A DNA stretch of 64,000 nucleotides from an uncultured Clostridium sp. (GCA_948468505.1 CAOKJE010000001.1:225-64224), one strand, 5' to 3'; counted from the stretch's first letter, positions 3,640-40,798 are shown. Numbers and translations: made by a program. The notes: generated from the letters alone by a model not told the origin.

Positions 3640-4824
3640 ATGAAAAGAAAATTTTTGTTAGTAATACTGATAGTAACAATGCTATTATTAATTATGATGC
3701 CAATAGGATTGACAGAGGAAAAAAATTTAACAAATATACAAGAAAATAGAACAGAATCAGAATTGATTGTAGAAGAAGATAGTGCTATTGATTTTGTATA
3801 TTCGATTTCTGAAGGAGAAGTCACGATAACTAGATATAGAAATAAAAAAGCAGAAGTAAAAATACCTAGTATGATAGATGGTTGTCCAGTAACAAGTATA
3901 GGTTCGGATGCATTTAGAGATTGTAGCAGTATAACAAATGTAATAATACCCAATACTGTAGTGAACATAGAATCGAAAGTGTTTTTTGGATGTAGTAGTT
4001 TAACAAATATAACGATTCCAAGAAGTGTGAACAATATGATGCATTGGGCGTTTTGGGGGTGTAGTAATTTAACAAGCATAAATGTAGATAGTAACAATCA
4101 GAAATACAGTAGTGAAAATGGAATTTTATTTAACAAAGATAAAACAGAAATTATTAAATATCCAGAAGGTAAGGAAGATTCCAATTATGTAATATCAAAT
4201 AATGTTACCCAAATAGGTCCCTGGGCATTTTTTAATTGTAGAAATTTAAAAAATATGACAATTTCAAATTGTGTTAAAAGTATAGGAAGTATGGCTTTTT
4301 ATGAATGTACAAGCTTAACGAACATAGATATTCCAAATAGTGTTACCAATATGGGAGATCATACATTTTATGGATGTAGTAGTTTAACCAATATAACAAT
4401 TCCAAGTAGTGTAACATGTATAGGAGAAAATACATTTCAAAGATGTACTGGATTAACAACAATAATGATTCCTAATAGTGTAAAAACAATAAAAAGAATG
4501 GCGTTTGAAGGATGTAAAAATTTTACCATATATACATATAGAGGAGCATATGCACAAACTTATGGAAATGAGAACAATATAAATGTAGTATTGTTAGATG
4601 ATTGTTTACTAGGAGATATGGATGGTGATGGCGAAATAACTCCATATGATGCTTATATAATCAATGTAATATTTGAAAGTGGAAGAATACCAACAGAACA
4701 AGAACTTTTAATAGGAGATGTTGATGGAGATGGAGAGTTAACTCCATATGATGCTTATATAATCAATGTAGCATTTGAAAGAGGAGAAAATATAAAAAGA
4801 TATATAATGATAAAGAAGAAGTAA
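3640..4824 (+). CDS. Secreted BspA-type leucine-rich-repeat protein with two C-terminal dockerin repeats
   Basis: Signal peptide MKRKFLLVILIVTMLLLIMMP. Repeated CSSLTNI(T/D)IP LRR units. DMDGDGEITPYDAY and DVDGDGELTPYDAY are type-I dockerin calcium-binding segments. Confidence 0.7.
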   Translation: MKRKFLLVILIVTMLLLIMMPIGLTEEKNLTNIQENRTESELIVEEDSAIDFVYSISEGEVTITRYRNKKAEVKIPSMIDGCPVTSIGSDAFRDCSSITNVIIPNTVVNIESKVFFGCSSLTNITIPRSVNNMMHWAFWGCSNLTSINVDSNNQKYSSENGILFNKDKTEIIKYPEGKEDSNYVISNNVTQIGPWAFFNCRNLKNMTISNCVKSIGSMAFYECTSLTNIDIPNSVTNMGDHTFYGCSSLTNITIPSSVTCIGENTFQRCTGLTTIMIPNSVKTIKRMAFEGCKNFTIYTYRGAYAQTYGNENNINVVLLDDCLLGDMDGDGEITPYDAYIINVIFESGRIPTEQELLIGDVDGDGELTPYDAYIINVAFERGENIKRYIMIKKK

Positions 4825-4990: not shown

Positions 4991-5212
4991 ATGAAAAAAA
5001 GAGCCAGAAAGAAATCAAATAAAAAGAACAAAGAAGTCAATTATTATAGAAATTTTGGAAGTTTATCAAACGATAGTGTTGTAACAGATATCTATAATAA
5101 AAAATTTAGGAATGAGGAAAAAACGATAGCAACAAAATGTCAGGTTAGAAAAATGACTGACGAAGAATACGAAAAATACTTTGGGAAGAAAAAAATCAAT
5201 AAGGACAGTTAA
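4991..5212 (+). CDS. Small basic hypothetical protein
   Basis: 73 aa ORF with an RBS (agggag) upstream and no recognisable motif. Confidence 0.35.
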   Translation: MKKRARKKSNKKNKEVNYYRNFGSLSNDSVVTDIYNKKFRNEEKTIATKCQVRKMTDEEYEKYFGKKKINKDS

Positions 5213-12530: not shown

Positions 12531-12567
12531 GGGATTGAGGGACGTTCCTTAAATCTTCAATCCCCAA
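12531..12567. repeat. GGGGACG-family motif, hairpin form, upstream of the ABC ATPase RBS
   Basis: ggggattga-gggacgttccttaaatct-tcaatcccc. The loop resembles the 35569 copy. Confidence 0.55.
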
Positions 12568-13487: not shown

Positions 13488-14941
13488 ATTAATTAAAAAT
13501 GAATTAACCAAAATTTTCAAAAAAAAGAGCATTTATATAACTTTATTTGTCATTTTAGCTTTTGTTATTTTAACCAACTGCATTTATAAATTTTTCTATC
13601 ATAGTGGTATCTATAGCGAATACAATGATAGCTATATCCAATATGCCAAGGAAGAAATTGCAAAATTAGATCCCAATAAACCAAGTGATGTTAAAATGTA
13701 TATTGATTTAAAAACCACTTTAGACGTTTATGAAATAAGACAAAAATACGAATCAGGAACTTGGCAAGAAAAGATACTATCTATGCAAGTTTCAGGATAC
13801 ATCAATGAAAAAAACACCTATTTATATGGAGAAAACAAAGACAGCCAAAAAGTAGCAAAAATAGAAGAAGAAATCAAGCAAACTCTTCAAAAATTAGACC
13901 AAGGAGATTGGAAATTTTTTGCCCAAGAAGAATTAAAACAGGCAAAAACAGCCCTACAAAGATTAGAAGAGCAAAAACAAAATACCGTTGACAAGCAAGA
14001 ACTACAAGACTTAGAAATAGCAATAAAAAATGCTAAAATTGACCAAGAAGTAGCCGAAATTAGGATAAATAAAGACATTATATACGGAAATGACTTTAAA
14101 AACAACGCCTTAGAAACCTATCAAAGTGAAGCCAAAACTATAATCAGTGCAGAAGTTAATACACGGAGAACAAGAATATAAAACAAAACAAGAATACAAC
14201 AAAAGCTTAGAAAAAAGAGAAATAAATCACTACATTTTGGAAAATAACATAGACATCAACAAAACAAATGATGTAAGAGGAATTCTAAAAAATATATTTA
14301 GTGAATATGGCTTATTTATCATCGTCATGATAGTCATGATAGCAGGAACCATTGTAAGCGAAGAATTTAACAAAGGAACCATCAAACTATTATTAGTAAA
14401 ACCATATAGTAGAAACAAAATATTACTTGCCAAATTTATAACTGTTTTAATCATGATAGCATTTACTATTGTAGCAGTTATAGCAATGGAACTAATCGTA
14501 GGAGGAATCATTTTTGGATTTGACAGCTTATCAGTACCAGTTTTACAATATAATTTTACAACAGGAAACTTAGAAGTGCTAAACATCTTTACTTATTTAG
14601 GAATAGAAATACTAACGCAAGTACCGAAATTTATCCTATTAGCAACACTTGCCTTTTCTTGCAGTACCTTATTTACAAACAGTGCAGTAGCAATAGCAAT
14701 ACCACTGCTAGGTTATATGTCAGCTGATATGATTAACATGCTAGTCATTCAATACAAGGTACAATTCATGAAACTATTTGTCAGCTTAAATTGGAACTTC
14801 GAAGAATACCTATTTGGTAATTTGCCAAAGATGGAAGGAATGACTTGTAGTTTTTCTATTATAATATGTGTGCTATATTTTGTGGCTATGTTAATACCAA
14901 CTTTTATTACTTTTAAAAAGAAGAACATAAAGAACATTTAG
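13480..14941 (+). CDS. ABC-2 type transporter permease, one CGG recoding site (14164)
   Basis: Two overlapping ORFs join at aca-CGG-aga as ...EVNTGEQEYKTKQEY..., and the downstream half has six predicted transmembrane helices. Confidence 0.6.
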
Positions 14942-14946
14942 CTTGA

Positions 14947-15030
14947 AATGATTTTGGGGACGGAGGAAAAAATCATGATTGAATTGTTATACAACCATGA
15001 TTTTTTCCTCCGTCCCCAAAATCATTTCAA
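14947..15030. repeat. Perfect ~33-bp-arm palindromic element A (GGGGACGGAGG core, embedded RBS and ATG)
   Basis: gaaatgattttggggacggaggaaaaaatcatg ...19 nt... catgattttttcctccgtccccaaaatcatttc. The same arms occur at 18297-18380, and a half-copy at 40768-40798. Confidence 0.8.
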
Positions 15031-15098
15031 AATAAATATTGAATTTTGTAGAAAAAAGAGGTATAATAGTAGCATAGAAAATTAAAGGAGGAATCAAC

Positions 15099-15773
15099 AT
15101 GGAAGCAAAAATTATTGGAGAAACCTTACCAGCCGTTATTTGTAAACTACAAAAAGGAGAATCAATCCTTACAGAAAACGGTGGAATGAGTTGGATGGAC
15201 AATAAAATTACCATGAAAACAACCACAAATGGTGGAATTATGAAAGGAATCGGAAGAGCCTTTGCAGGAGAATCACTTTTTATGAATGTATACACAGCAG
15301 AGCAAGACAATGCAGAAATAGGATTTTCTTCTTGTTTTCCAGGACAAATATTAGAGTATGACTTAAAAGAAGGAGAAACCATCATTGCACAAAAACGTGC
15401 TTTTCTATGTTCAGAAAATACAGTAGACATCTCTATGCAATTTCGTAAAAAGCTAGGAGCAGGATTTTTTGGAGGAGAAGGATTCATCATGCAAAAAATC
15501 ACAGGACCAGGAAAAGTATTTTTAGAAATTGATGGTTCTGTTGTAAAAAAAGAATTACAAGCAGGAGAAAAATTAAAAGTAGACAATGGATATGTAGCAG
15601 CCATGACAAAAGATGTACAACTAAACATTGAAACCGTAAAAGGCGTAAAAAATATAGTATTTGGTGGAGAGGGATTATTCTTAACAACACTAGAAGGACC
15701 AGGTACCATATGGTTACAAACCATGCCAATTTCAAAATTATCAAGCTTATTATACGTAGGAACAGCAAGATAG
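15099..15773 (+). CDS. AIM24/TIGR00266-family protein
   Basis: Overall pattern of glycine-rich beta repeats (GAGFFGGEGFIMQKITGPG...GGEGLFLTTLEGPGTIWLQ). The antisense ORF 14987-15808 is spurious. Confidence 0.6.
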   Translation: MEAKIIGETLPAVICKLQKGESILTENGGMSWMDNKITMKTTTNGGIMKGIGRAFAGESLFMNVYTAEQDNAEIGFSSCFPGQILEYDLKEGETIIAQKRAFLCSENTVDISMQFRKKLGAGFFGGEGFIMQKITGPGKVFLEIDGSVVKKELQAGEKLKVDNGYVAAMTKDVQLNIETVKGVKNIVFGGEGLFLTTLEGPGTIWLQTMPISKLSSLLYVGTAR

Positions 15774-15774
15774 G

Positions 15775-15830
15775 AAATTTTGCCAAAAGGGACAGACCTT
15801 TTTGGCAATTTTGTTTCTTTTTTTTAAAAT
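15775..15830 (+). terminator. Rho-independent terminator
   Basis: ttgccaaaag ggacagacc tttttggcaa hairpin followed by a T-run. Confidence 0.6.
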
Positions 15831-15944
15831 TTAATAGAAAAAAGTTTGTAACAACTTTTGGGAAGTAGCGTAAAAATCTTTCCGACTTTTAGGTATATAA
15901 GTAGTAAGCAAGGTAATATAATATAAAAAAGGAGTTAAAGAAAA

Positions 15945-16569
15945 ATGAAAGTAATATTAGTTAATGGAAGTCCACATGAAAAAGGATGTACCTATACAGC
16001 CTTAAAAGAGGTAGAGAAGACCTTAAACCAAAATGAAATTGAAACTGAAATATTTTGGCTAGGAAATAAACCAGTAGCTCGGATGTATTGGTTGTGGAAA
16101 TTGTTTAAAAACAGGAGAATGTTTTGTAAAAGATAAAGTAAATGAATTTTTGGAAAAAGTGCCAAAAGCAGATGGCTTTATTTTTGGAACACCAGTACAT
16201 TTTGCAGCAAGCTCTGGTATGTTATCTTCTTTTATGGATAGAGCTTTTTATGGCAGAAGAAATTTATTTAGCAATAAGCCAGCTTCAGCAGTAGCAAGTT
16301 GTAGAAGAGGTGGGGCAACAGCCACTTTAGATGAAATTAACAAATATTTTGGTATTAGCAATATGCCAATCGTATCTTCTCAATATTGGAATATGGTGCA
16401 TGGAACCAAACCAGAAGAAGTAATAAAAGACGAAGAAGGAATGCAAACCATGAGAACGTTAGGAAACAATATGGCGTGGCTATTAAAATCAATAGAAGCA
16501 GGGAAAAAAGCAGGAATTGAATTACCTAAAAATGAACCAATTGTTTCTACTAATTTTATAAAACCATAA
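15945..16569 (+). CDS. Flavodoxin-like FMN-dependent reductase / iron-sulfur flavoprotein family, one CGG recoding site (16080)
   Basis: At gct-CGG-atg the +1 frame gives KPVAGCIGCGNCLKTGECFVKD (a Cys cluster) and continues into the 16150-16569 ORF. Confidence 0.6.
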
Positions 16570-16654
16570 TTTTTTGAATATGGTAGCAAAATCATTTTAA
16601 ATAACAAATAAATATTGCCAATTATTAAAAATAAAGATATAATAAGAAAAAAGA

Positions 16655-16697
16655 AAGCGATGTTTTTTGTGCTTTTAGGGACGAGGCCAAAAAACAT
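16655..16697. repeat. GGGACG-family hairpin element
   Basis: gcgatgttttttg-tgcttttagggacgaggc-caaaaaacatcgc lies upstream of the RBS for the 16721 gene. Confidence 0.5.
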
Positions 16698-16720
16698 CGC
16701 ATCAAAAAGGAGATATTATA

Positions 16721-17548
16721 ATGAAAAAAACAATCGCAAAAACAATCATGATAATTGCTATTTTAGCATTTACTTATGCAAATTTAGGACAAGTACAAGC
16801 AGTAACCAATCAAGAAATAACACAACAGCAACTAGAAAACTATGTAAAGGACATAGACCCAAACAACGTAAGCAAAGAAGATATTTTAAAGATATATGAC
16901 GAAGTAAGCAAAGACTATTCTCCAGAAAATATAGCTGATATGCTAGAAGAAAATGCAAAGGAAATAGAAGCACAAGGCGTTAGCAAAGATGTAATTTCAG
17001 CAGGGGCAGAGTTTATTAGACAAACCGATACACAAAGTATAAGAAAAATAATAGAAGATGACATTGACATAGAAGATATCAAAGAAAAGATACAAAAAGG
17101 TTATACAGCAGATCAAATTTTAAATAGTATGGTACAAGAAACACCAACCACAAAAAAAGTAGAAATAGCAACAAAAGTACTATTATCTAATAAAATAATA
17201 AAAACAATTGTGACAATAGCAGTAATAGTATTTATCTATGGAACCATTCTTAGATGGATTATTTATACCAAAGCTGGAAAACATGGATGGGCAGCAATTG
17301 TGCCACTTTACAGGCAAATTGTAATGTACCAAGTCTGTGGACTATCTCCATTTTTGATGCTACTTTGGTTAGTTCCTATATTTGGATGGATTGCGATGCT
17401 AGTAATTGCCATCATGAAAAGATTTTGCTTGGCTAAAGAATTTGGAAGAGGAGCTGGTTTTGGTTTTGGATTATTGTTTTTCGGACTAATTTTCCAAAGC
17501 ATATTAGCTTTTCATCCTAAGATTCAAAAAAATGAAAAGGAAGCGTGA
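16721..17548 (+). CDS. Secreted/membrane protein with a C-terminal multi-helix membrane domain
   Basis: Signal peptide, a charged ~150 aa region, then AGKHGWAAIVPLYRQIVMYQVCGL...FGRGAGFGFGLLFF transmembrane helices. Confidence 0.4.
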   Translation: MKKTIAKTIMIIAILAFTYANLGQVQAVTNQEITQQQLENYVKDIDPNNVSKEDILKIYDEVSKDYSPENIADMLEENAKEIEAQGVSKDVISAGAEFIRQTDTQSIRKIIEDDIDIEDIKEKIQKGYTADQILNSMVQETPTTKKVEIATKVLLSNKIIKTIVTIAVIVFIYGTILRWIIYTKAGKHGWAAIVPLYRQIVMYQVCGLSPFLMLLWLVPIFGWIAMLVIAIMKRFCLAKEFGRGAGFGFGLLFFGLIFQSILAFHPKIQKNEKEA

Positions 17549-17558
17549 AAAAAGAAAA

Positions 17559-18340
17559 ATGAACCAGAAGCGGAAAGATAGGAGTTTTTGATTCAGGGAT
17601 TGGTGGCGTAACTGTCTTACGGCGAAATGATTAAAATTTTACCAAAAGAAGATTACATCTATTATAGTGATTCTAAAAATAATCCATATGGCGATAAAAC
17701 AGAAGAAGAAATAAAACAGCTATGTGACAACATTGTCTTGCATTTACTAGAAAAAGAATGTAAAGCAATCGTAATAGCATGCAATACAGCAAGCGCAAAA
17801 GCAGCAGAATTCTTAAGAATAAAATATCCTAAAGTACCAATTATTGCAATCGAACCAGCCTATAAAATGGTGCATGATTATAATTATGATAAAAAAACCT
17901 TAGTAATGGCAACAAAAGGAACAATAGAAAGTGAAAAGTTTAATTTATTATTAAAAAAATATGATAATCATAAAACCTACCTTTTGCCTTGTGTGGGATT
18001 AGCCGAAAAAATCGAAGCAGGAAATCAAGAAGAAATTAAAAAATATTTGCAAAAAACACTAGGTTGTTATAAAAACAAAGTAGAAAATGTAGTGCTAGGC
18101 TGTACCCATTATCCCTTGATTCAAAATGAAATTGCAGATATTTTAGGGCAAGTTAAATTTTTTAATGGAGCTCCTAATTTAGCTAAGTATCTGAAAGAAG
18201 TTTTAGTGCAAAAGGATTTATTAAATGATGGAGAAGGAAGAATACATTTTGAAGATTCAGCAAGATTAGTAGAGAAGGAAAAAAGATTTTTTGAGATTTT
18301 AAAAGAGATTTTGGGGACGGAGGAAAAAATCATGGATTGA
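17559..18340 (+). CDS. murI: Glutamate racemase MurI, two CGG recoding sites (17571, 17620); C-terminus runs into element B
   Basis: Reading across aag-CGG-aaa and tta-CGG-cga gives MNQKGKIGVFDSGIGGVTVLGEMIKILPKEDYIYYSD. This joins the 17627-18340 ORF, which carries ACNTASA and GCTHYP, and the last 10 codons (LGTEEKIMD) come from the palindromic element. Confidence 0.75.
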
Positions 18341-18380
18341 ATAACAACGCAAGCCATGATTTTTTCCTCCGTCCCCAAAA
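18297..18380. repeat. Palindromic element B (same arms as element A)
   Basis: attttggggacggaggaaaaaatcatgg ...loop... ccatgattttttcctccgtccccaaaat. It overlaps the 3' end of murI. Confidence 0.8.
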
Positions 18381-18399
18381 TCTTTCCCAAATTTCAAAA

Positions 18400-18828
18400 T
18401 TATAAATATTTTTTCAACTGTTCCACTGTATTTTCCTGAAACTGAACAAACTCTGTTAGAATATTTTTCACAGGCTCATCGGTATTAGGGTTATGGTTTA
18501 AAAGCTTAACGCCCTTAATAATTCCCATATTAGTACCTTGTAGCATCATTTCAGCAATTTTAGAAGTACTTTTATCCTCCATAGTATTAAACTCTACACT
18601 CATCCACCCCATAGCTTTTTGCATGGGATTTAGCTCCTTGGGAAAGTCATTATAATGAGAAAGTTCAGTATTAACCTTATTTAAAATATCGTTATATTTG
18701 TCATATTGAAATTTTAAATCCTTTTTGAAATCGTCATCTTGTATCTTTTCAGCAACGTTAGAAATTGAATCCATCCCCATTTTAATTCCCTTATTAACTT
18801 CATTTAAAATATAACCAGGACTATCCAT
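18400..18828 (-). CDS. Hypothetical protein, possibly a spore coat protein F-like domain
   Basis: 142 aa ORF with an RBS (aaggagg) and no in-frame CGG. The family assignment is a weak impression only. Confidence 0.35.
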   Translation of the reverse strand: MDSPGYILNEVNKGIKMGMDSISNVAEKIQDDDFKKDLKFQYDKYNDILNKVNTELSHYNDFPKELNPMQKAMGWMSVEFNTMEDKSTSKIAEMMLQGTNMGIIKGVKLLNHNPNTDEPVKNILTEFVQFQENTVEQLKKYL

Positions 18829-18885
18829 TGTAAATTCCTCCTTTAATTTTTTTTAATATAACCAAAAGGAAAGAAAAATATTCTT

Positions 18886-18917
18886 TATGATGTTTTTTGG
18901 GACGGGGTCAAAAAACA
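18886..18917. repeat. GGGACGG-family hairpin element
   Basis: gatgttttttg-ggacggggt-caaaaaacatc lies between divergent genes. Confidence 0.5.
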
Positions 18918-18934
18918 TCATTTTATGAAAATAA

Positions 18935-18975
18935 GTGAACAATAGTATTGACTTTAAAAGGGAAAAAATGATAAA
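18935..18975 (+). promoter_or_regulatory. Sigma-A-type promoter for the pilin-like gene
   Basis: TTGACT, 17 nt spacer, then gATAAAAT. Confidence 0.45.
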
Positions 18976-19045
18976 ATCAATTATACAACACCAAAATGAC
19001 ATAATGTGAAAAGAAGAAATACGAAAGAAAGAGGAGCAAACAAAT

Positions 19046-35473: not shown

Positions 35474-35568
35474 AAAAATATCCTAGTGTATCATAACTAG
35501 GATATTTTAATCGTGTTTGACAAAAACAGAAAAAAGATGTATAATTTTATATGTTTTTAAGAGAAAAG

Positions 35569-35598
35569 GGATTTTGGGGACGTTCCTTAAAATCCCTA
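35569..35598. repeat. GGGGACG-family hairpin motif upstream of the typA RBS
   Basis: gggatttt-ggggacgttcctt-aaaatccc. Confidence 0.55.
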
Positions 35599-39741: not shown

Positions 39742-40759
39742 ATGGAAGAAGAAAGAATCATGAAGGCAGACTTAGAAAATGCAAGCGAAGAACGATTTGA
39801 AAACACATTAAGGCCAAAAACGCTACAAGAATACATAGGGCAAAACAAAGTTAAAGAAAACATGAAAATATATATAGAAGCTGCCAAAAAAAGAGAAGAA
39901 CCATTAGACCATGTTTTATTATATGGTCCTCCAGGCTTGGGAAAAACCACATTGTCCAATATTATATCAAACGAAATGAATTCCAACATCAAAATAACCT
40001 CAGGACCAGCGATTGAAAAACCAGGAGACTTAGCATCTTTACTAACTAACTTAGCAGAATTTGATGTGTTATTTATTGACGAAATTCATAGATTAAGTAA
40101 AAGTGTAGAAGAAATACTATATCCAGCATTAGAGGACTACACCCTGGATATTATTATTGGAAAAGGACCAAGTGCAAGATCCATACGACTAGATTTACCA
40201 AAATTTACATTAATAGGGGCTACCACAAAAGCAGGAGCGTTATCAACACCATTAAGAGATCGATTTGGGATTGTACATCGATTAGAACTTTATAGTATCG
40301 AAGACTTAACCACAATTGTTAAAAGGTCAAGCAAAATTTTAGAAGTAGAAATTGAAGAAGTAGCAGCCATCGAAATAGCAAGAAGATCAAGAGGAACGCC
40401 AAGAATTGCCAACCGACTATTAAAAAGAGTAAGAGACTATGCCATTGTATTAGGAGATGGAACCATTTCGCTAAAAATCACAAAGCATGCTTTAAACCAA
40501 CTAGAAATTGATGAACTTCGGCTTAGACGAAATTGACCGAAAAATACTAGAAACCATGATTGTTCAATATAGAGGAAGACCAGTTGGAATTGAAGCTTTA
40601 GCAGTAAGTGTAGGAGAAGAAATTGACACCATAGAAGATGTGTATGAGCCATACTTAATACAAATTGGCTTTATGGCAAGAACCTTACGAGGAAGACAAG
40701 CCTTACCACCTGCCTATAAGCATTTAGGATATGAATGTGAAATGGGAGACGGTTCTTAA
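39742..40759 (+). CDS. ruvB: Holliday junction helicase RuvB, one CGG recoding site (40519)
   Basis: Walker [10 protein letters not shown] and Walker B FIDEIHRL. At ctt-CGG-ctt the +1 frame gives [20 protein letters not shown]... and continues to 40759. Confidence 0.85.
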
Positions 40760-40767
40760 TTCACATA

Positions 40768-40798
40768 GCGGATTTTGGGGACGGAGGAAAAAATCATG
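40768..40798. repeat. Half-copy of the palindromic element, supplying the RBS and ATG of the next gene
   Basis: gattttggggacggaggaaaaaatcATG matches the left arm of elements A and B, and the ATG is the start of the 40796 gene. Confidence 0.7.

Follow-up and report, generated by a model that had tools for sequence, protein, structure and literature searches.

A hairpin repeat family of uncultured gut Clostridia that resembles REPIN and TIRtron repeats, and its probable Y1 transposase partner

What are the two palindromes and the related half-copy found in a stretch of 64,000 nucleotides from an uncultured Clostridium sp. (GCA_948468505.1, CAOKJE010000001.1:225-64224; hereafter the window), and do they serve their host as portable translation starts? 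An earlier note, made from the sequence of the window, described two perfect palindromes of ~85 bp whose arms each carry a ribosome-binding site (RBS) and start codon (GGAGG-N8-ATG), together with a half-copy initiating the gene queH. As suggested by our comparative analysis, these repeats belong, with a probability of roughly 0.75, to a family resembling repetitive extragenic palindromes (REPs), REPINs and TIRtron repeats in the AT-rich chromosomes of uncultured gut Clostridia, partnered with a Y1 (HUH) transposase of the RAYT/TIRYT type. Since the hairpin repeat is dispersed in gut Clostridia and brackets a Y1 gene, it is kin to REPs and REPINs and not a purpose-built RBS module. The two palindromes, doublets A and B, are REPIN-like doublets, and the copy at queH is a singlet.

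The repeat unit as a covarying hairpin

The 27-mer ATTTTGGGGACGGAGGAAAAAATCATG is present in five exact copies in the window (14951-14977, +; 14996-15022, -; 18308-18334, +; 18355-18381, -; 40772-40798, +) and was matched in none of 100 dinucleotide-preserving shuffles, which bears out the identical arms described before. The five copies form the inverted doublets A and B and the solo copy at queH. Doublet A (14933..15040) consists of two units in (+,-) order with an 18-nt spacer, namely unit A-left (14948..14976, +) and its counterpart on the opposite strand, unit A-right (14997..15025, -), and represents an inverted repeat whose arms of 52 nt show 90% complementarity and are separated by 4 nt. 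On one side of it an ABC-2 permease gene has its stop codon (14941), and on the other lie the promoter-like site and the start (15099) of an AIM24-family gene. Doublet B (18306..18383), likewise two units in (+,-) order, has a 20-nt spacer and 34-nt arms, 97% complementary and separated by 10 nt, and is flanked by murI (+) and a convergent DUF2383-like gene (18400-18828, -). The solo unit C (40771..40798, +) lies at the queH start and is truncated in the 5' half of its stem. The palindromes are therefore real and the repeat was correctly described, with two adjustments: "perfect" slightly overstates structures whose 18- and 20-nt spacers are not palindromic, and the second element, placed earlier at 18297-18380, was a few bases off the inverted repeat at 18306-18383. 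Folding of the doublets gave -38 to -44 kcal/mol as DNA and -56 to -70 kcal/mol as RNA (z = -11 to -19). Searched with Rfam at the gathering threshold, the whole window yielded tRNAs only and no match at the elements; at E <= 1, element A matched just generic microRNA-precursor hairpin models, far below their cut-offs.

Each arm of a doublet is itself a hairpin. The unit of about 30 nt is composed of a 5' stem, three to five T, the loop GGGGACGGAGG, six to seven A and a 3' stem; in unit A-left, the stem ATGATTTT/AAAATCAT encloses the loop GGGGACGGAGGAA (DNA fold -4.1 kcal/mol) and covaries across genomes. The stem around the core has a median length of 8-10 bp, compared with 2-3 bp at random positions. 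When 76 distinct units were aligned, their 12-pair helix reached a covariation score of 0.328, against 0.128 for shuffled partners (0/500 reaching the observed value) and no more than 0.134 for slid partners, and double-change cells in the helix numbered 141 where 69 were expected. Stem versions with compensating changes include CATGAT/ATCATG, GATGAT/ATCATC, CTGTT/AACAG, CTTGTT/AACAAG, GGTTAC/GTAACC and AGAAAT/ATTTCT. The loci of one metagenome-assembled genome (MAG) share a single version, as grouped by eye from the table of matches: all those of CAJFHE01 have CTTGTT/AACAAG and all those of JAFWDV01 have GAAAT/ATTTC. T-run, loop (GGGGACGGAGG) and A-run do not vary in the 76-unit alignment. 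Given the compensating stem changes across genomes, TCATG with its ATG is simply this lineage's version of the 3' stem.

Distribution in gut Clostridia and a flanked Y1 transposase gene

A scan with the 20-nt core TTTGGGGACGGAGGAAAAAA, covering a single genome of each species, matched at least 117 stretches, and at least 186 units (core with at most one mismatch) were counted in at least 117 MAG loci, five of them in this 64-kb window. Judged by record title, all but one of the 80 matches listed were uncultured Clostridia, Clostridium sp. or Eubacteriales, and the sources among the matches listed were sheep, rabbit, chicken, mouse and human gut. A 20-mer scan of 2.9 million viral contigs gave no matches, and a full-text literature search for GGGGACGGAGG returned unrelated eukaryotic papers only.

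The order of the units is strict. Among the matches listed, to which the counts of this paragraph refer, all 47 doublets (pairs less than 200 nt apart) were in (+,-) order, the G-rich unit followed by its complement, with a core-to-core spacing of 36-129 nt; besides them there were three direct tandem pairs, no (-,+) pair and 87 singlets. Crude calls of open reading frames (ORFs) cover 86% of the locus DNA, yet the majority of copies are intergenic. Doublets were found 14 times between convergent genes (5.4-6.1 expected) and 3 times between divergent ones (5.4-8.1 expected), and singlets were oriented 40:15 in favor of the sense strand of neighbouring genes (p = 0.001). Spacers of doublets are mostly unique. 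The two doublets of locus L008, with different flanks and a common spacer, are the one non-orthologous spacer-sharing pair within a genome among the loci sampled, a single case because few loci per genome were sampled; the pair would fit the re-use of an entire doublet.

Copies within genes also occur. Several ORFs stop a few codons past a unit, like murI in the window. A unit lies in frame (HDFGDGGKNHD, 11 amino acids) within the RNase H endonuclease domain of UvrC in L069 (~5189-5199) and L095 (~4652-4662), two species that share the insertion, and another unit is situated in the linker of a MiaB-like radical-SAM enzyme (L117, 6516-6535). A partial 5' copy, made up of the 5' stem, the T-run and one to four G and ending TTTTGGG(G), abuts the full unit in about 17 of 164 units (L022, L027, L028, L032, L040, L054, L055, L074, L076, L077, L094, L096, L099, L102, L029 and L080). 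Simple nested insertion was considered as the origin of these partial copies and rejected, the 3' remainder of an older unit not being found after the full unit. In L052 (3975-4050), the loop of one unit is split into GGGAT and ACGGAGG by about 55 nt. The partial copies and the split loop may mark a cleavage or joining point within the loop.

Comparison of orthologous loci in relatives, by which the earlier note proposed to judge the element, revealed empty sites in L052, L071, L103, MurI homologues and queH loci. L052, syntenic with the window at 12.6-21.8 kb (74-87% identity), has no doublet at the site of doublet A and carries other hairpins instead; where L052 has a disrupted doublet of the main family (3975-4157), the window is without a doublet and has a hairpin of a sister family (16657..16700). 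A 32-nt singlet in L012 and an 89-nt doublet in L063 correspond to empty orthologous sites in L071 and L103, respectively. The target-site duplications for which a search had been proposed were not visible, as no obvious direct repeat was present at the clean filled/empty junctions of L012/L071 and L063/L103; the candidate pairs e82, e96, e104 and e126 aligned too poorly to define junctions. The former description as a MITE-like (miniature inverted-repeat transposable element) or modular mobile element thus holds for a repeated, non-autonomous sequence of mobile type with orthologous sites empty in relatives.

When 921 ORFs from the loci were clustered, a Y1 (HUH) transposase proved to be the sole mobile-element gene that recurred. 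It adjoins units in L022, L054 and L010, and a related hairpin family in L026. A search with the L054 protein led to four related lineages (L201/202, L203/204, L205/206 and L207/208), all with the gene order ABC-F ATPase, Y1, tex and with Y1 identities of 57-87% across lineages. A unit (-) stands just 5' of the tex ribosome-binding site in all four lineages, and a recognisable unit (+) overlaps the ABC-F stop codon in three, the upstream copy of L201/L202 being degenerate. The units flanking the Y1 gene, (+) upstream and (-) downstream, are hence in the order of all 47 doublets, a pattern with which L054, L022 and L010 are consistent. Two MAGs, JAAWAM01 and CAPBNZ01, hold both contigs with a flanked Y1 gene and dispersed units. 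In L201-L208, the unit stem includes the TGA that terminates the ABC-F gene.

The Y1 protein of ~247 amino acids has an invariant HUH motif (H60, H62) and an invariant Tyr121 and scores above the Pfam Y1_Tnp cut-off. The best NCBIfam model was REP_Tyr_transpos (70-76 bits), with the IS200 model at 16-19 bits. The best sequence-profile match in the PDB was E. coli TnpA_REP (4ER8, E = 2e-6); a search of the PDB with the single sequence gave no match, so that a profile was required. The AlphaFold2 model (pLDDT 88) also matched 4ER8 best (target-normalised TM 0.72, root-mean-square deviation 3.3 Å), followed by the TnpA proteins of IS608 and ISDra2, and contains an additional confident helical domain at residues 183-245. 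Homologues of the protein have precomputed Pfam matches to helix-turn-helix (HTH) families, and the direct match, HTH_26, was below its cut-off; the helical C-terminal extension of ~100 amino acids in the model looks like an HTH domain.

A second Y1 clade is found in the synteny recD2, Y1, phosphoribosyltransferase and is flanked by hairpins with GGGACAG(G)TC loops. Such GGGACAG-type hairpins flank the clade in L026, L198 and L199, in L198 again with (+) upstream and (-) downstream. In L199 (2150-2400), a recD2-like ORF ends within a unit (...MRHMGDRS, stop), and the recD2-like gene is apparently split into two ORFs. A contig binned to a Spirochaetales MAG (L010, 1637-2235; SPDA01000263.1) carries the identical 20-nt core ~70 nt 5' of a short (169 amino acids) RAYT-like gene without C-terminal extension; this copy from a different phylum either belongs to the same system as a distant member or stems from a contig binned in error.

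By analogy with TnpA_REP and IS608, the Y1 enzyme would move the units, cutting and re-joining them at the replication fork. The units would fold as hairpins on single-stranded DNA, most likely on the lagging-strand template, and the enzyme would recognise them, cut them and re-join them elsewhere without target-site duplication, each genome retaining its own stem version.

Neighbouring genes and other hairpins of the window

The last ten codons and the stop codon of murI (18308..18340, +) are element-derived. The gene ends ATT TTG GGG ACG GAG GAA AAA ATC ATG GAT TGA and stops at 18340, giving the tail ...ILGTEEKIMD. In L052, MurI finishes with ...FFEILKGEINR, and a tail of the LGTEEKIMD or GTEEK type is absent from all 120 of the closest MurI homologues; they have ...RFFEILK in common and then diverge. 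Doublet B thus replaced the end of murI, and the earlier proposal that element B supplied the last ten MurI codons is upheld.

In addition, murI has an apparent +1 frameshift (window 17560-17640), where frame 3 reads GKIGVFDSGIGGVTVLRRND and then a stop, the remainder following in frame 1 from ...EMIKILPKEDY. The murI gene of L052 reads through this site uninterrupted (GVTVLREMIKVLPKENY). As P0220-P0225 and some other homologues among the closest in the database are likewise called from MPKEDY only, the break may be shared by the lineage and not be a read error. What appears to be a single-base insertion near gatgaaCTTCggc (window 40500-40540) breaks another gene, ruvB, into two frames. These apparent single-base frameshifts in murI and ruvB call for caution with regard to small indels and leave the repeats unaffected.

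At queH, the loop of unit C places GGAGG (40783-40787) 8 nt 5' of the ATG (40796-40798). The product, which begins MKLLLHTCCAPC, aligns from position 1 with the Pfam QueH model. At queH, the unit is missing from all of 80 related loci (69-85% protein identity), and every one of them has ATG AAR YTN in this place, behind a Shine-Dalgarno sequence of its own; where ruvB is retained upstream, its stop codon precedes the queH ATG by only ~12 nt. As the ATG is at the same position in all 80 loci, the start codon of queH is ancestral, and the unit is an insertion in this lineage. Of the earlier claim that the half-copy supplies both RBS and start, the first part stands, since the unit now gives the Shine-Dalgarno sequence, and the second does not. 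Directly 5' of unit C lies a hairpin of a sister family (40735..40766, +; atgtgaaatGGGAGACGGTTCTTaattcacat), which forms the C-terminal tail of RuvB (...CEMGDGS, stop). Unit C and this sister hairpin were inserted before the queH ATG, replacing the native Shine-Dalgarno sequence.

Similarly to queH, accD in L061 (3266-3295) starts at the unit's GGAGG-N8-ATG. Among the matches listed, 59 of 164 exact-core units have a start codon 5-10 nt past GGAGG, and only these two begin credible genes. The idea of a portable start codon was therefore rejected, and "portable RBS and start" as a design is contradicted as well by the position of the ATG in the variable, covarying stem and by the pairing of GGAGG in doublets with CCTCC of the other arm. 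Because of this pairing, the folded doublets A and B cannot serve as ribosome-binding sites. Donated C-terminal tails and Shine-Dalgarno sequences are occasional by-products. The effects seen in the window, namely the ten-codon MurI tail, the replaced Shine-Dalgarno sequence of queH and the hairpins after two genes, look like side effects at landing sites; the stable RNA hairpins after the two genes could block 3' exonucleases or hinder read-through.

Homology between the window and L052 (5836-7143) halts at 18303, where doublet B begins to adjoin, and is restored ~2.6 kb further on at 20958. The window interval (18304-20957) holds the DUF2383-like gene (-) and a 529-amino-acid protein in which the N-terminal methylation (pilin-like) motif scored weakly and below threshold, and the L052 interval holds apt (3' of murI), a small ORF and a 146-amino-acid ORF that is Dps-like in appearance. 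The DUF2383-like gene of L092 has a singlet beside it at this end, too. Units may indicate points of rearrangement or promote them.

The window contains at least five further hairpins with T-run/A-run stems and GGGAC-type loops (GGGACAGACC, AGGGACGAGG, GGGACGGGGTC, GGGGACGTTCC and GGGAGACGGTTC), which from their sequences look like sister families of the main unit. All those with an assigned strand are on the + (coding) strand, which in the window carries nearly all genes and a positive GC skew. Apart from the copy at ruvB, they are situated at 15780..15808 (+; ttgccaaaaGGGACAGACCTttttggcaa), 3' of the AIM24-family gene and with a loop like that of the GGGACAG hairpins flanking the second Y1 clade; at 16657..16700 (+; gcgatgttttttgt-GCTTTTAGGGACGAGG-ccaaaaaacatcgc), intergenic; at 18887..18921 (+; atgatgttttttGGGACGGGGTCaaaaaacatcat); and at 35567..35597 (+; agggattttgGGGACGTTCCTtaaaatccct), whose loop type also occurs in other MAG loci. 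A single GGGAC-type hairpin with a T-run/A-run stem lies at ~12538-12560. Unrelated to these hairpins is a perfect 21-nt inverted repeat (ATACAATAAATTGTAAAAAAT/ATTTTTTACAATTTATTGTAT, 7 nt apart; 58419-58467) placed where two + strand ORFs meet, so that it overlaps the first at its end (to 58434) and the second at its start (from 58462).

Alternative explanations and relation to known systems

Several points weigh against assigning the family to a REP/REPIN-like system partnered with the Y1 enzyme. The link between unit and Y1 gene is positional, mobilisation by the enzyme is inferred, no transposition event or intermediate having been observed, and the 64-kb window has no Y1 gene. The four ABC-F, Y1, tex loci are orthologous and therefore count as one conserved arrangement, not as four independent events, and the counts of units come from MAG stretches and are not per-genome copy numbers. 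The Y1 protein remains under the NCBIfam REP_Tyr_transpos cut-off of 80 bits. Outside the stem, the 76 aligned units have no conserved tetranucleotide such as a GTAG or CGTC terminal tag. A loop as the conserved part is unusual, and its conservation is in part artefactual because the loop itself served as the scan query. Moreover, the sense bias of singlets and the conservation of a Shine-Dalgarno loop across species would also fit selection for an RNA function.

The last point leads to the main rival, in which the unit is primarily a cis-acting RNA element, a hairpin displaying GGAGG or a stable 3' hairpin, kept for mRNA stability, termination or translation in the manner of 5' stabilisers of the Shine-Dalgarno type or REP 3' stabilisers, with a secondary link to the transposase. 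Besides the bias of singlets (40:15), it would account for the coding-strand position of all extra GGGAC hairpins in the window, the enrichment of copies at 3' ends and between convergent genes, the very negative RNA folding energies of the doublets, and the use of the unit's GGAGG-N8-ATG by queH here and accD in L061. We nevertheless consider it unlikely as the primary explanation, given the variable placement relative to genes, the orthologous genes of relatives that lack the unit, the in-frame copies inside uvrC and the MiaB-like gene, the burial of the Shine-Dalgarno sequence in the stem of doublets and the lack of a match to an Rfam family; it also leaves the flanked transposase unexplained, and the strand bias is equally expected from replication-coupled single-strand transposition where genes are co-oriented with replication, as they are in the window. 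An RNA role may well be true in addition to the REP/REPIN-like nature of the repeats.

The remaining explanations are disfavoured. An ordinary MITE, that is, a deletion derivative of an insertion sequence (IS) with terminal inverted repeats, moved by a DDE transposase and making target-site duplications, would fit the resemblance of doublets to two inverted repeats around a short non-coding core and the presence/absence of copies between relatives. It is highly improbable because L012/L071 and L063/L103 display no target duplication and no DDE transposase recurs beside the units (only Y1_Tnp recurs among the 921 clustered ORFs); moreover, single units insert alone too, and each supposed inverted repeat is itself a covarying hairpin. 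Least credible of all is the explanation that the palindromes are intrinsic bidirectional terminators alike by chance, or an assembly artefact, to which the strong GC-containing stems 3' of genes and the two apparent single-base frameshifts, questioning the quality of the assembly, might point. A plain terminator is disfavoured by the missing T-run, the arms being followed by CATTTCAAAATAA in A and CTTTCCCAAATTT in B, and a consensus terminator scan listed neither doublet; an artefact is disfavoured by the presence of the unit in over 100 independent assemblies, with samples taken from sheep, rabbit, chicken, mouse and human, and units are also found singly and inside genes. The bidirectional terminators suggested earlier are thus not supported; the enrichment between convergent genes does agree with a role at 3' ends.

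The REP/REPIN-like reading, which we prefer, draws on systems well described in Proteobacteria, where REPs, bacterial interspersed mosaic elements (BIMEs) and REPINs occur with REP-associated tyrosine transposases, or RAYTs (PMC3116915, PMC3337134). Like these (E. coli TnpA_REP, PDB 4ER8; Pseudomonas REPINs; PMC3116915, PMC3337134, PMC5581495), the units are short, dispersed and mainly extragenic hairpins; they form inverted doublets with a variable spacer and conserved arms besides singlets, and a Y1/HUH gene in conserved synteny is flanked by inverted units. Genome-specific sequence versions and occasional copies in genes, including uvr genes, are further REP-like features, and Di Nocera et al. 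2013 reported REP dimers and REPs inside uvr and other repair genes (PMC3733652). Unlike in REPs, the hairpin has no GTAG tag at its foot and combines a conserved purine-rich loop of 11-13 nt with a variable A/T-rich stem; unlike in REPIN-RAYT systems, the hosts are uncultured gut Clostridia and the transposase bears the ~100-amino-acid helical C-terminal extension and is below the NCBIfam RAYT cut-off. REPINs have been tied only to RAYT groups 2 and 3 (PMC5581495; bioRxiv 10.1101/2021.07.10.451892), and Bertels et al. found Group 1 RAYTs in Clostridia (PMC5581495).

In TIRtrons, a RAYT-like gene (TIRYT) lies between inverted repeats with GGGGWSAS in common; some such repeats form moderately abundant families organised as dimers, and the examples come from Proteobacteria, Acidobacteria and other phyla, in a survey that mentions no Firmicutes (PMC3733652). 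The main family here (GGGGACGG) matches this motif at 7 of 8 positions, and the sister family of L199 (GGGGACAG) at 8 of 8. A Y1 gene flanked by inverted repeats and the dimer organisation are shared with TIRtrons, and the putative HTH-type C-terminal extension would be a further resemblance to TIRYTs, the majority of which were assigned by Quentin et al. 2018 to TnpA_Y1 subclass 2.1 with HTH-type C-terminal extensions (PMC6006769). No REP-like secondary structures were found for subclass 2.1 by these authors (PMC6006769), whereas the flanking repeat here is a covarying hairpin; the protein is likened to this subclass by description and not by subclass models.

Other short elements are less similar. 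Rickettsia palindromic elements also add peptides as in-frame palindromes, as do the units in the tails of MurI and RuvB and in UvrC (11 amino acids, L069/L095), but they measure 100-150 bp, are unrelated in sequence and have no known dedicated transposase, and most copies here are extragenic. Bacterial MITEs (Correia/NEMIS, RUP, ERIC) are small non-coding inverted repeats beside genes that form stable RNA hairpins and can alter the expression of neighbours; however, they are derivatives of DDE-type IS elements and make target-site duplications, neither of which is seen here. The TnpA enzymes of IS200/IS605 (IS608, ISDra2) have the same catalytic fold, and these elements recognise single-stranded hairpins and do not duplicate their target, but they are multi-copy and autonomous with different left and right end hairpins, whereas here the gene is syntenic and the hairpins are multiplied. 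For want of a GTAG/CGTC tag, and with a protein scoring slightly below the curated RAYT cut-off, the family is not filed as a classical REP; it is a variant that behaves as a REPIN does and resembles the repeats of TIRtrons.

A bolder version of this reading, on which we would bet at less than even odds, is a true long-lived partnership of the REPIN-RAYT type in Firmicutes, with a Y1 class that bears an HTH domain and has been reported without REP/REPIN partners. The loop GGGGACGGAGG, and not a GTAG tag, would then be the determinant of recognition and cleavage, and the TTTTGGG(G) partial copies may mark the cut. The loop being a consensus Shine-Dalgarno sequence, copies would be recruited time and again by the host, be it as ribosome-binding sites, as ends of mRNAs or as peptide tails.

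Work on REP/REPIN-RAYT systems has dealt nearly exclusively with Proteobacteria, and these systems have been argued to be rare vertically inherited replicators inside genomes. The present family extends the REPIN picture to a repeat well conserved across many species of uncultured gut Clostridia, with a probable Y1 partner of putative HTH type and a loop in place of the terminal tag, and thus widens both the host range and the range of recognition designs; its hairpin of ~30 nt offers a compact biochemical substrate. For the annotation of gut MAGs, the units explain odd C-terminal tails (...LGTEEKIM, ...MGDGS, ...HDFGDGGKNHD), spurious N-terminal extensions and breaks of synteny. The queH locus illustrates that a mobile repeat can swap the ribosome-binding site of a gene while the start codon stays in place.

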